This document shows, one piece after another, positions 38,720-60,498 of a stretch of DNA of 64,000 bases (positions are counted from its first letter, which is position 1; each line of letters begins with the position of its first letter). The translations under genes were made by a program, and so were the position numbers. Where the stretch lies: the NCBI GenBank assembly GCA_045599105.1, contig JAZRVL010000041.1, positions 4,295 to 68,294 of the forward strand, read 5' to 3'. The stretch is from Kiritimatiellia bacterium. Lineage in GTDB: Bacteria > Verrucomicrobiota > Kiritimatiellia > RFP12 > UBA1067. Below the pieces are notes generated by a model. The model was given only the letters and a program-made list of their open reading frames with translations. It was not told where the DNA came from and ran no database searches.

Positions 38720-41700
38720 CTATTTACTTGAAGCGGCGGGCTTTGACATAAGATAGAAAAATCCTTGCTTACCTTCGGCAGGAACCGTGATAACACCATT
38801 CGTCGCAACCGACCAGTTCGGGTTTTCGATAGTGTCCGTGGTGTAGACGCTGACATCAAGCAACGCCTTGCCATCCTCGATCTTAACGCACTCGAATTCG
38901 GCAGGTGAAATTGCGCCCGCCGGATCCTGTCCGCCGACTGCGGCGAAAAGATCGTTTAATACTATCCCGTTGACCGGAGACGTCGTAACAATTCCCTTGA
39001 GTGAGTTCGCGCCCAGCCTCACCGTTTCGGCAACCCGAGCCGCCATAACTTGGGACATCACCTCCGCCCACGGTCGTTCAGCCGCAGACGCAAAATCGTC
39101 CGTTCGTCCCCTGCCCTCAAAAACGAGCGTGCTATTGCCGTTCGTCCACACGACGACCGACTCACCGCTCTCCCACGGATTGCCCTCGCTGCCGAGTGGA
39201 CCTTGGCAATATAAGGCGATATCGCGGACGATGCCCGCCATTGTCGCCTTCGCCGCCGCAAGCGTACTGGCGTCCTCCACGCCGTCAAAGACCGTCTTCG
39301 ATTCCTCAACGAGCTCCAAGACTTTCGGCGAACGCTTCGCCACGGGACCTGCCAACTCCTCAATGTATGCGTCAAACTCCGTGCGATGCCACCGCGTCCA
39401 CAATGCGCCCTGTTCGGCGTTCGTTGGAATCGATGAGGCGAAGGGATAGGTCGGCACGTCCGTCGCGCCTCCTCCATCCCGCAAATCACAGTTGAACTCG
39501 GTCCAGTACCAAGCGAGCTCGTCGTGGAGCCGCTTCGCGTCTGCAAGCGTCCAAATCTGGTTGAAGTTGACCTGCGCCGTCGCCTCGGTGCAGCCGGACT
39601 TTCCACGGATCATCCACTTCTCCAACATTTTCGGCCACTCCTCGATGAGCCACTCCTCCTGCGCGCGCCAAAAAGCGCGAACGCCCGCGCCGTAGTAGGG
39701 GCGCACGTCTTGGCGAACGCCGTACGTATCGACGATGAAGCGCTTAAGCTCCGCGAGCGTGTCGAGCCGCAAGAACGCATCCGCCGCGCGCTTAGGGTCG
39801 TAGCCGAACTCCCCCTCCTGGTCACGCGAGTAGGCGTCCGGAATCTCCTTCATCGCCATACAGACCGGAAGAAATGTCGAATGTTCCGCCTGCGCGAGGC
39901 ATTCCCAAAGCGTGCAGCGGTAGTCCTCCGGCAGCGCGTGGCGCATCTGCAAGACATGGCTACTCGCCTGCTTCGTCGTGCCGATCACGCGGATCGAGGT
40001 GTCCTCTTCTTCCTCGGGACAGTTCACGCCCTCGTAGCGCGTCCGCATCAGCTCGAAAATGTCCGTAAGCGCGATCTTCTTCTCCGGCGTGAAGAAAAGC
40101 TCATAGTGGGTCGCGGTCAAATAGGAGTTCGACGGGTACGCCATCGGCGCCCAGGCGTTGTGTCCCCAGAAAGTGCGGTAGTTGGCGTAGTCCCACAAGG
40201 ACGGCGAATAGGTCTCGTAGAGATCGATGATGCCATTTCCCTTGTCCTTCCAGACGTCGAACCCGTTTTCAACGGCGAGAGAGACGAGCCCTGGCGAGTA
40301 CATCACGTTTTCGGTATCGTTCGTGTCGAATTCGCAGATGTTGAACTGGTTGCCGAAGACGGCGACCTGATCCTCCGGCATCCGCACGGCCGCCCACTCG
40401 TGGCCCGTGTACACCTCGACGTACCACGCCTCGTTCGTATCCGCGACCATGTAGATCTCGGGACCGGAATGTCCGTTCGCCTTGATCTTCTCCCCCAGCA
40501 TCTCCACGGCCTCGCGGGCGGTAGCGGCGTTGCCGACAAGAAAATCTGGGAAATTCTGCTCGCCAACGCCGCCCTCTTCGATGGGTTTAAATGGGTCGGC
40601 TTCGAGCGCTTGTTCGTCCGTCCGCCCGCTCACCGTCGCTGAGAGCATTACGCCCTTCTCGTTGATTGCCTCGCCGCCGTAGAAACCCTTGTTCATACTC
40701 GTCACAAACGAAGCGCAAATGAAGGCGTACTTGTTCTTCGTCCCGTCGAAGTGCATCTTCTCGCCGCGCTCGAAGCGGTTCATGCGTCGCGCGGCGTTAC
40801 ACGGCGGAAAGTCCATTGTCTGCCCGATCATCGTCGTCCCGTCGGCGGACACCTTCTTGCCAACATAAAACCCCGTGCCGTCGGTCGCGCCAATTCCGTC
40901 GCCGTCAATACAATTGTTCGCCGCAGCTTCCCACAAAAGTTCGTCGTACGTCCGCTTCGCATCCGCGAACGACTTTTCCTCTTCGTTGCGGGTGTAGCCC
41001 CAAAGCGCCTCGTATTGTCCCGATGCGATGGCTGCGGAAAGCTTCTGCGGCCATTCCTCGGCCCGTCGCATCTCGTCCTCCCGCCAGTGTGCACGAACAC
41101 GCGGACCATACAACTCGCGGTTTGACTGGGTGAGCGCCGAGAGCCGACGAAACGCGTCCGCCGCGCGGTTCGGGTCGTAGCCGAATGTTTGCTGCACGTC
41201 GTTGGTGTAGGCATCTGGCAAGTAGTCCTGCGAGGCGTTAATCGGATGGAATACGCCATGCTCACAATTTCCAAGACACGACCAGAGCGTTGCGCGCATT
41301 CGCTCCGGTGTATTCTCACGGCAGTCGAGTTGGAGGACGTGGCAGTTCCCTTGCTTGACCGTACCGATTACGCGGATCGGAAAGCTTGTGCGCGGCGTCG
41401 GGAGCTCCTCGTCCGACATATCCTCGTAGCGCGAGCGCATCAGTTCGAACATGTTGGTCGGCGCGATCTTGTAGCCCGGCTCGAAGAAGAGTTCGGGCAG
41501 GAGATCCGTCTCATAGTCCGGCAGGTTCTTATCCTCAAAGCGCTTATGTCCATACCAAGCGCGGAAGTTGTTGTAGCCCGACTCCACCGAACCTGGATCA
41601 GCGTAGGTCTTGTAAAGGTCGAGTTTTGTCTTGGTTTCGTCCGTCCAGACGTCAAATCCATTCTCAACGGCGAGAGAGACAAGTCCCGGCGAGAACATCA

Positions 41701-42346
41701 CATTCTCAGTATCGTTCGGATCAAAGCTACGCAGGTTGAAGTGGTTGCCGAAGACGGCGACCTTATCCTCGGGCATCTTCACCGCCGCCCACTGATGGCC
41801 CGTATAGACCTCGATGTACCACGCCTCATTCGTGTCGGCGACCATATAGATCTCTGCGCCGTCGTGCCCCCTCTCCTTGATGGCCTTCGCGAGTAGTTCC
41901 ACCGCCTCGCGAGCGGTCGCGGCGTTGCCAATCATGTACTCTGGGAGGTTGGGCTCACCGACGTCATTGTCATTGGACTTAACTGGATCAAATGGATCCT
42001 TTTCAAGCGCTTTTGGATTCGTCGCGCCAGTGATGGTGCCGGTGAGGATGACGCCTTTTTCGTTTACGGCGCTTCCAGCGTAGCGCCAAGCGTTGAGACT
42101 CGTTGACTTCGGAGCGCAGATATAACGATACTTGTTGACCGTTCCATCAAACGCCACTTTAGTCCCTGGCTCGCAAATTTGCTGGAACATCGTAGCGTTA
42201 TACGGCGAGAAGTCGACCGTCCGCCCGATGAGCACAGACCCGTCAGTCGTCACCTTCTTGCCAGCGTACATCCCAGTGCAAGCATCCGCCATATAAGGCA
42301 CGATGCACAGCGCAATTATCAAACCCAATACCAACATCTTTTTCAC
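38720..42346 (-). CDS. secreted tandem C69-family (Ntn-hydrolase dipeptidase-like) protein; second copy lacks the nucleophile Cys; unassigned C-terminal ~250 aa
   Basis: The signal peptide ends ...YMADA|CTGMYAGKKVTTDGSVLIGRTVDF, a C69 N-terminal Cys. The second copy starts TDGTGFYVGKKVSADGTTMIGQTMDF, with Gly at the Cys position. The track start is GTG 42346; an alternative ATG is at 42337. Confidence 0.7.
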   Translation of the reverse strand: MKKMLVLGLIIALCIVPYMADACTGMYAGKKVTTDGSVLIGRTVDFSPYNATMFQQICEPGTKVAFDGTVNKYRYICAPKSTSLNAWRYAGSAVNEKGVILTGTITGATNPKALEKDPFDPVKSNDNDVGEPNLPEYMIGNAATAREAVELLAKAIKERGHDGAEIYMVADTNEAWYIEVYTGHQWAAVKMPEDKVAVFGNHFNLRSFDPNDTENVMFSPGLVSLAVENGFDVWTDETKTKLDLYKTYADPGSVESGYNNFRAWYGHKRFEDKNLPDYETDLLPELFFEPGYKIAPTNMFELMRSRYEDMSDEELPTPRTSFPIRVIGTVKQGNCHVLQLDCRENTPERMRATLWSCLGNCEHGVFHPINASQDYLPDAYTNDVQQTFGYDPNRAADAFRRLSALTQSNRELYGPRVRAHWREDEMRRAEEWPQKLSAAIASGQYEALWGYTRNEEEKSFADAKRTYDELLWEAAANNCIDGDGIGATDGTGFYVGKKVSADGTTMIGQTMDFPPCNAARRMNRFERGEKMHFDGTKNKYAFICASFVTSMNKGFYGGEAINEKGVMLSATVSGRTDEQALEADPFKPIEEGGVGEQNFPDFLVGNAATAREAVEMLGEKIKANGHSGPEIYMVADTNEAWYVEVYTGHEWAAVRMPEDQVAVFGNQFNICEFDTNDTENVMYSPGLVSLAVENGFDVWKDKGNGIIDLYETYSPSLWDYANYRTFWGHNAWAPMAYPSNSYLTATHYELFFTPEKKIALTDIFELMRTRYEGVNCPEEEEDTSIRVIGTTKQASSHVLQMRHALPEDYRCTLWECLAQAEHSTFLPVCMAMKEIPDAYSRDQEGEFGYDPKRAADAFLRLDTLAELKRFIVDTYGVRQDVRPYYGAGVRAFWRAQEEWLIEEWPKMLEKWMIRGKSGCTEATAQVNFNQIWTLADAKRLHDELAWYWTEFNCDLRDGGGATDVPTYPFASSIPTNAEQGALWTRWHRTEFDAYIEELAGPVAKRSPKVLELVEESKTVFDGVEDASTLAAAKATMAGIVRDIALYCQGPLGSEGNPWESGESVVVWTNGNSTLVFEGRGRTDDFASAAERPWAEVMSQVMAARVAETVRLGANSLKGIVTTSPVNGIVLNDLFAAVGGQDPAGAISPAEFECVKIEDGKALLDVSVYTTDTIENPNWSVATNGVITVPAEGKQGFFYLMSKPAASSK
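39467..42280 (-). repeat. intragenic tandem duplication of the ~465-aa C69 module (copy 1 ~40907-42280, copy 2 ~39467-40879)
   Basis: The copies align over their length. For example, EIYMVADTNEAWYIEVYTGHQWAAVKMPEDKVAVFGN matches EIYMVADTNEAWYVEVYTGHEWAAVRMPEDQVAVFGN. Both copies end ADAKR..DEL.W....NC....G.GATD. Confidence 0.8.
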
Positions 42347-42354
42347 CTTTTATA

Positions 42355-60426: not shown

Positions 60427-60469
60427 AATTTCTCCTACTCCTGTGCCTATAACACAAATATTGTTCTGA

Positions 60470-60498
60470 ATTATACGTTTTCTTCCGCGATAAGTCAA
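60470..60498 (-). promoter_or_regulatory. near-consensus sigma70 promoter TTGACT-17 nt-TATAAT driving the giant-protein gene train
   Basis: The minus strand reads TTGACTtatcgcggaagaaaacgTATAAT (60498-60470). It lies about 37-44 nt upstream of ATG 60426. Confidence 0.55.

Follow-up and report, generated by a model that had tools for sequence, protein, structure and literature searches.

The 21.7-kb stretch between positions 38720 and 60498 of the window (the whole 64-kb stretch of contig JAZRVL010000041.1, from a Kiritimatiellia bacterium, that was analysed) carries two genes for giant exported proteins of the gingipain type, G1 and G2, with a four-gene cassette between them and a gene for a double C69 dipeptidase behind them. 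This stretch is probably a mosaic of independently evolving modules and not a dedicated system. The unusual combination of giant proteases with nucleotide-transferase-type enzymes is a chance juxtaposition, brought about by mobile modules entering a variable hydrolase locus, and the parts all belong to known kinds, namely a divergent C25 family, a candidate module of the PADLOC collection, a SoFic-like Fic protein and a C69 dipeptidase. The initial annotation of the stretch was accurate in its details and overestimated their significance. The features are listed below, in order of transcription, with protein lengths in amino acids (aa).

60470-60498, minus strand: sigma-70-like promoter candidate TTGACT-17-TATAAT, a sequence match to the consensus
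53944-60426, minus strand: G1 giant, 2160 aa from the MKKQ start
53688-53912, minus strand: DUF3791 small protein, 74 aa, first gene of the PDC-M13 module
53191-53691, minus strand: DUF3990 protein, 166 aa
52985-53206, minus strand: third small open reading frame (ORF) of PDC-M13, 73 aa, ATG at 53206
51651-52988, minus strand: Fic protein, 445 aa
42355-51642, minus strand: G2 giant, 3095 aa
38720-42346, minus strand: secreted double C69 dipeptidase, 1208 aa

The cassette was sought in 31 related giant loci, 18 from genomes and 13 from a metagenome scan, which were compared by tblastn and Pfam. None of the four cassette genes (DUF3791, DUF3990, the third small ORF, Fic) had a tblastn match in any of these loci. 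Same-strand tandem arrays of giants are present in L002 (3 copies), L003, L004, L008 and L025, and in the relatives the giants adjoin each other or other secreted hydrolases, such as S8 subtilases, a GH20 enzyme and a fucosidase. The loci that bear most on the window are organized as follows.

L001: HipA, G1-like giant, TPR protein, ExbB, ExbD
L002 (JAZQOS010000021): partial giant (46% identical to G1), 1248-aa C25 protein, G1-like giant (42%), TPR protein, ExbB, ExbD
L003: two S8 subtilases, G2 orthologue (64%), another giant after about 20 nucleotides (nt)
L004 (JAZQOS010000021): two S8 subtilases, giant (40% identical to G2), about 510 nt, G2 orthologue (84%)
L008: S8 subtilase, giant, C69 (82-87% identical), giant
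L025: two same-strand giant copies

On JAZQOS010000021, a contig of the closest genome found, about 100 kb separate the G1-type array (L002) from the 84% G2 orthologue (L004), and the adjacency of G1 and G2 is therefore not ancestral. The survey of gene neighbourhoods proposed in the initial annotation gave a divided answer: giants are adjacent without the cassette, and the C69 gene lies between giants in L008 and elsewhere in four other loci. Composition also changes along the stretch. The GC content at third codon positions (GC3) is 0.38-0.47 in the three small genes (DUF3791 0.47, DUF3990 0.38, third small ORF 0.38), 0.62 in Fic, 0.55-0.57 in the giants and 0.735 in the C69 gene. The stretch thus comprises at least four compositional units, and the cassette is made of two modules, PDC-M13 and the SoFic-like Fic gene; these two are regarded as separate because both their plasmid distribution and their codon composition differ. 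The initial annotation had weighed two readings. Its toxin-type cassette, landed between the giants, is upheld by the absence from the relatives (0/31 loci), the occurrence of the module on unrelated plasmids and the shifts in composition. Its coupled system of surface proteases with effectors or regulators is not supported, given the same absence, the giants that stand adjacent without the cassette and the occurrence of the module on plasmids elsewhere.

From G1 to the C69 gene the junctions measure 31 nt, an ATGA overlap, a 16-nt overlap, a TTGA overlap, 8 nt and 8 nt; the ORF calls reproduced the seven minus-strand genes and these sizes exactly as first described. The promoter candidate is situated in the 158-nt gap between an amidase gene and G1, with a GGAG ribosome-binding site downstream of it. 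Its reported position, 60498-60470, was borne out, and nowhere else in the window is the consensus matched with at most one mismatch; shuffled sequences held a mean of 0.27 such sites, and at least one site occurred in 24 of 100 shuffles. A scan of the window found no terminator-like site at any junction of the seven genes, as had been noted before, and none was found after the C69 stop. The missing junction terminators carry no information, however, because terminator-like sites are no commoner in the window than in shuffled sequence (12 vs 22.6 ± 4.5; 11 vs 13.9). The seven genes share strand and tight spacing since nearly every gene of this chromosome region does. The minus strand holds 36 of the 38 non-overlapping ORFs of at least 120 aa, and the GC skew is negative and uniform over the whole window. 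Housekeeping genes at 3-30 kb, among them those for AICARFT/IMP cyclohydrolase, glycogen phosphorylase, a GreA-domain protein and priA, likewise overlap by 4 nt or lie at most 40 nt apart. The co-directional 'gene train' described earlier is therefore real in its strand and spacing but not in its significance, since both are the background state of the window and uninformative for the seven genes.

The first module of the cassette consists of three consecutive ORFs that match the A, B and C models of PADLOC PDC-M13 with E-values of 1.6e-15, 2.4e-48 and 4.3e-26. The DUF3791 ORF matches Pfam DUF3791 (3.4e-16) and two PDC-M13 models (1.6e-15 and 3.7e-14), and its stop overlaps the start of DUF3990 (ATGA). 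The DUF3990 ORF matches Pfam DUF3990 over the full model length (6.4e-41) in addition to PDC-M13B (2.4e-48). The third small ORF has no Pfam match; it is recognized by PDC-M13C (4.3e-26) and is homologous to the N-terminal half of longer Bacteroides 'DUF3791' proteins. PDC systems are candidates predicted from genes embedded in known defence systems (bioRxiv 10.1101/2024.01.29.577857). Homologues of DUF3990, 47-50% identical, were found on 85 plasmids, mostly of Bacteroides, Clostridium, Phocaeicola and Parabacteroides, and the protein also matches 7 phage or virome records. The order DUF3791 then DUF3990, with the same 4-nt overlap, recurs on pBF9343 and on a B. uniformis plasmid, where the neighbours of the pair include a zeta toxin gene, ParA and another Fic gene; on pBF9343 the zeta toxin gene adjoins the pair. 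In its three model matches, gene order and overlap the window module thus resembles that of Bacteroides fragilis pBF9343. It differs in that a single 148-aa Bacteroides DUF3791 protein contains both halves, the N-terminal half similar to the third small ORF and the C-terminal half to the DUF3791 ORF, whereas the window has two genes flanking DUF3990. It also differs from the plasmid copies in being chromosomal and placed between giant protease genes. On this sequence evidence, the trio in the window is foreign. The label 'PARP-like', given to DUF3990 in the initial annotation, agrees with the placement of the family in the Pfam ADP-ribosyltransferase clan (PMC7955679) and extends as far as that clan membership. 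DUF3990 has no sequence match in the PDB, and its single-sequence AlphaFold model is of low confidence, with a predicted local distance difference test score (pLDDT) of 36.5. PDC-M13 would most likely act as a toxin-antitoxin-type or abortive-infection unit, in which DUF3990, as a member of the ADP-ribosyltransferase clan, would be the toxin and the small proteins its restraint.

The Fic protein matches Pfam Fic (6.9e-14) and DUF4172 (8.8e-13) and has C-terminal winged-helix domains. The active-site motif HPFEDANGRVGR at residue 212 conforms to the pattern HxFx(D/E)(A/G)N(G/K)RxxR, and the inhibitory motif TSAIEG at residue 67, within the N-terminal DUF4172 region, to (S/T)xxxE(G/N). These domains and motifs bear out the original Fic call. 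The PADLOC SoFic model is matched near full length (4.8e-43); in the PDB the best match is 8cil (1.4e-37), and SoFic itself, 3eqx, is matched at 3e-10. The protein shares with SoFic of Shewanella oneidensis an N-terminal DUF4172 region that carries the inhibitory motif, the motif of the Fic active site and a winged helix at the C terminus. In contrast to SoFic, the window protein is about 70 aa longer and has a second helix-turn-helix region, and it is not accompanied by a small downstream gene of the AS1 antitoxin type (PMC12249575); there is none because G2 begins 8 nt past the Fic stop. Judged by its motifs, the protein is SoFic-like and is predicted to be an autoinhibited AMP-transferase, a relative within the same Fic subfamily and not a demonstrated SoFic. 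SoFic-family proteins were reported to have anti-phage activity, with abortive infection by toxic AMPylation during phage infection (PMC12249575). Homologues of the window Fic (about 35% identity) are carried by 812 plasmids, and the genera most often represented among these belong to the Alphaproteobacteria.

The insertion appears to have altered the transcription of G2. Upstream of the 84% G2 orthologue in L004 lie 510 nt that contain repeats, a TGGTATAAT element and a ribosome-binding site belonging to the gene. G2 of the window begins 8 nt past the stop codon of Fic, with which the sequence of its ribosome-binding site overlaps. Since the orthologue has an upstream region of its own and the window G2 has not, G2 and C69 probably rely on read-through. 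They would be transcribed either from the promoter at 60498, by way of the cassette, or from an undetected internal promoter. Several palindromic copies resembling TCCATA(C/T)ATGGA(G/C)A are located at L004 12080-12240, ahead of TGGTATAAT, in a region that is missing in the window; they may be binding sites of a regulator.

Directly downstream of the C69 gene, at 31426-38483, are a split type IIG-like restriction-modification system (a T5orf172 and ResIII protein and an Eco57I-type methyltransferase), two ORFs without assignment and a Y1 (IS200-like) transposase of 276 aa. The GC3 of these genes is low (0.39-0.50). Upstream of G1 lie the amidase gene and a carboxylesterase gene. Between 31 and 54 kb the region is variable, and defence and mobile genes alternate there with genes for secreted hydrolases.

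A coupled system, in which the cytoplasmic DUF3990 and Fic proteins regulate or modify the flanking surface proteases and all seven genes form one co-evolved operon, is very improbable. The genes do lie on one strand, with gaps of 8-31 nt or overlaps, behind one strong promoter-like site and without terminators at the junctions, and the winged-helix domains of Fic could bind DNA. However, the tight same-strand packing and the lack of a terminator excess are window-wide, the five tandem giant arrays are among the 31 loci that lack the cassette, and the same module is carried without giants by plasmids of unrelated phyla. The four codon compositions within the stretch also speak against it, as does the fact that the small proteins have no signal peptides while the giants are exported. 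That the assembler joined G1-type and G2-type arrays from different locations or strains at the cassette is scarcely credible. The distance of about 100 kb between the two types in the closest genome, the changes of composition at both cassette borders and the origin of the relatives from metagenome assemblies would be consistent with such a chimera. Against it, the ORFs are intact over the junctions, with sensible overlaps and ribosome-binding sites, the borders contain no repeat that could mislead an assembler, and the GC skew does not change across the window. It is unlikely that PDC-M13 and Fic purely stabilise the variable hydrolase island by addiction and have no anti-phage role. In favour of this view, the plasmid DUF3791-DUF3990 pair adjoins partition genes and a zeta toxin gene, HipA is found directly upstream of the G1-like gene of L001, and the anti-phage role of PDC-M13 is a prediction (bioRxiv 10.1101/2024.01.29.577857). 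The published anti-phage activity of the SoFic family (PMC12249575) points the other way, as does the presence of a restriction-modification system 1-7 kb downstream, an arrangement seen in defence islands; moreover, stabilising and defending are not mutually exclusive.

Several observations weigh against the mosaic of independently evolving modules. PDC-M13 is only a candidate defence system (bioRxiv 10.1101/2024.01.29.577857), and the Fic protein scores 51.9 bits with the NCBIfam model ProtAdlyltaseSoFic, for which the equivalog cut-off is 550. No direct repeats flank the cassette and no integrase or tRNA gene stands beside it; target-site duplications around it were likewise sought, and none was found. 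The spacing of the cassette is very tight (31 nt and 8 nt at its borders), as is usual for genes embedded in an operon, and a single transcript from 60498 is plausible. Its absence was established in relatives whose giants are 40-84% identical, with no genome of the same species among them. The C69 gene lies between two giants in one other genome, L008, and some functional link between C69 and the giants is conceivable.

By sequence and a structural model, G1 and G2 belong to peptidase family C25 and are putative endopeptidases. The two proteins are 27% identical over 1339 aligned residues (E 1e-102). They share the MKKQ signal peptide, GIET..YTLP, WKWY, FYAC, PWDY and an HG...C pair, as the initial annotation had listed; the paralogy and all of the motifs were recovered, but the spacings as written were schematic, the distance from DY[LI] to WKWY being about 10 residues and not 5. 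By sequence comparison they are true but old paralogues of two subfamilies and not a simple tandem duplicate pair. G1 consists of a signal peptide, a gingipain-type prodomain, a C25 domain, about 1400 aa of repeat-rich sequence without a domain match, and the tail FAPKIIVK. Its putative catalytic dyad is His540 (58807-58809) and Cys572 (58711-58713). In G2, the signal peptide is followed by a C25 prodomain and a C25-type domain (His550, Cys580), and then by a long repeat-rich region and two Laminin_G_3 domains before the tail SPRIIVR.

Pfam searches with the whole giants returned Propeptide_C25 (5.4e-05) and Laminin_G_3 (1.4e-16) only, both in G2. Peptidase_C25, which the initial annotation had expected in the giants, has no match in whole G1 or whole G2 and is detected by Pfam only in the N-terminal fragment of G1, where 723 aa searched alone score 30.6 bits against a cut-off of 23. 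Within the family, Peptidase_C25 is above threshold in 16 of 18 N-terminal regions, that of G1 included (best 4.3e-23), and Propeptide_C25 is matched by 6 of the 18. In the alignment of these 18 sequences the His-Gly (H540 of G1) and Cys (C572 of G1) columns are invariant, the Cys closing a hydrophobic strand. The 18-sequence profile has a single match in the PDB, the Kgp prodomain 5mun (E 1e-9), and a three-sequence profile had none. The AlphaFold model of G1 residues 1-722 has a pLDDT of 79.4 and a predicted template-modelling score (pTM) of 0.84. Foldseek placed RgpB (1cvr) first (E 4.8e-11, target TM-score 0.61), followed by the RgpB and Kgp prodomains (E 2e-7 to 9e-6) and then by PorU and separase. 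The C25 call made earlier is thus supported by the Pfam fragment match, the invariant dyad, the profile match to the Kgp prodomain and the RgpB-like model; G2 is tied to the family because it is paralogous to G1. Other domains proposed for the stretch were also found by Pfam (Laminin_G_3, Propeptide_C25, DUF3791, DUF3990, Fic and two C69 domains). F5_F8_type_C was likewise anticipated; it is not in either giant, in scans of whole proteins and sub-fragments. The middle and C-terminal fragments of the giants matched Laminin_G_3 in G2, and neither PATR nor another repeat family.

Compared with the gingipains RgpB and Kgp of Porphyromonas gingivalis (MEROPS C25, clan CD), the giants have the same succession of signal peptide, inhibitory-type prodomain and caspase-like domain, a dyad of His-Gly and Cys about 30 residues apart, and adhesin- or lectin-type C-terminal regions. 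In contrast to the gingipains, they are 2-3 times longer, about 12% identical in structural alignment, and hosted by Kiritimatiellia instead of Bacteroidota. Their C-terminal regions gave no Pfam or NCBIfam match to a type IX secretion C-terminal domain and end in a short P-[KR]-hhh-[KR] tail. The missing type IX domain concerns the export route and not the catalytic family. With 1400-2400 aa of adhesin-like repeats and lectin domains behind the catalytic region, the giants would most likely serve in the breakdown of host or dietary proteins and glycoproteins at the cell surface.

An exhaustive profile search was required for finding the family: a word-indexed protein search with the G1 N-terminus, and then with the 18-sequence profile, retrieved the single fragment P0001. 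The exhaustive search gave 730 representatives; for 69 the E-value was below 1e-30, and lengths of 2000-5000 aa were frequent. A scan with one genome per species yielded the 18 genome loci, nearly all labelled Kiritimatiellia or Verrucomicrobia and derived from metagenome-assembled genomes of human, goat, sheep, horse and other gut or rumen samples. A metagenome scan by the G2 N-terminus alone found no relatives, and literature searches on Kiritimatiellia with gingipain returned nothing relevant.

Several neighbours of the giants recur in the relatives. An S8 subtilase gene, single or as a paralogous pair, precedes the G2-type array on the same strand in L003 (4909-8701), L004 (1-3622) and L008 (2-1249); the window contains no S8 gene. 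At L001 8542-13782 and L002 16407-21647, the genes behind the G1-like giant encode a conserved TPR protein of 1039 aa, a protein of 235 aa, ExbB and ExbD. This set may serve the giants as an energised partner system in the outer membrane. TPR-ExbB-ExbD was considered as a conserved partner and rejected, being absent from the window. The HipA toxin gene occupies L001 746-2020, directly upstream of the G1-like giant, which suggests that toxin-type modules insert next to giants repeatedly.

The C69 protein matches Pfam Peptidase_C69 (PF03577) over two stretches (4.1e-102) and the NCBIfam model C69_fam_dipept (NF033678) with 411 bits against a cut-off of 250. About 360 C-terminal residues have no Pfam family match. 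In domain 1 the nucleophile Cys directly follows an A-D-A signal-peptidase site (18 homologues compared), so that it is exposed at the cleavage site as in other C69 family dipeptidases, which are Ntn hydrolases. Domain 2 reads DGTGFYVGKK, whereas in the homologues with a recognisable motif, be they separate genes or other fusions, Cys precedes TG or TA. L008 has the two domains as separate neighbouring genes, and nucleotide alignment with its positions 7600-7900 revealed a clean 116-nt deletion in the window gene. Lost are the 3' end of the first gene with its stop codon, the ribosome-binding site, the signal peptide of the second gene and the T of the Cys codon TGC; a hybrid GGC codon for Gly490 (40877-40879, minus strand) marks the deletion. 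From this alignment the gene is a fusion of two adjacent C69 paralogues by a recent deletion. Domain 2 has probably lost its activity, unless the deletion is a variant of the assembly or the strain. The tandem C69 peptidase of the initial annotation therefore stands in its family call and its two domains, but the second has no nucleophile; two domains in one chain, the second with Gly for Cys, also set the protein apart from the known dipeptidases. C69 homologues with 60-75% identity were found in four unrelated contexts.

L019: GH127 and GH16 genes
L020: CstA gene
L021: rhamnosidase and serine dehydratase genes
L022: amidase gene between two C69 genes

The linkage of C69 to giants is sporadic, being seen in the window and in L008. 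The genome of the 84% G2 orthologue probably lacks a C69 gene at that site, to judge from 71 C69 homologues. Where the two are linked, the dipeptidase could finish off peptides freed by the giants. The amidase of L022, which lies between the C69 genes (95-6978), is 54% identical to the window amidase at 60585-62222. Amidase and C69 may once have been neighbours, later split by the giants and the cassette.

Both giants end in a tail of the form P/x-[KR]-[IVLF]3-[KR]-COOH (G1 FAPKIIVK, 53944-53970; G2 SPRIIVR, 42355-42381). It is present in 44 of 150 giant-family representatives. When the window and the fetched loci are taken together, 22 of 85 ORFs with 600 aa or more have it, among them the 745-aa S8 subtilase beside the giants of L003; the 519-, 524- and 415-aa subtilases of L003, L004 and L008 carry it as well. 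A second group of the family ends in motifs of the FYR[IV]xV type. The tail matches no Pfam or NCBIfam model, and literature searches on Kiritimatiellia sorting signals returned nothing relevant. A 243-aa minus-strand ORF at 25910-26674, without a Pfam match, ends in NNGAKFFKLVRVIK, resembling the second motif class; its gene call is ambiguous, as it is overlapped by an equally long plus-strand ORF. The tail may be a sorting or anchoring signal of Kiritimatiellia that was not described before. A wider proposal is offered tentatively and is rather doubtful as a whole: the giants would be sorted or anchored by a C-terminal pathway of Kiritimatiellia that is so far undescribed, their arrays with subtilases and C69 would form a locus for protein degradation at the surface of an uncultured gut lineage, and the toxin modules would have captured the transcription of G2 and C69.

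The main value of the analysis is that an apparent new system is cleared up. The locus also illustrates how a downstream gene can lose its own promoter region through an insertion. The gut Kiritimatiellia, which are almost entirely uncultured, possess a large, unannotated family of giant gingipain-like proteins, arranged in arrays with subtilases and glycosidases, and these exported proteases share a short C-terminal tail that is a possible sorting signal. The giant family bears on how Kiritimatiellia feed on host or dietary glycoproteins.

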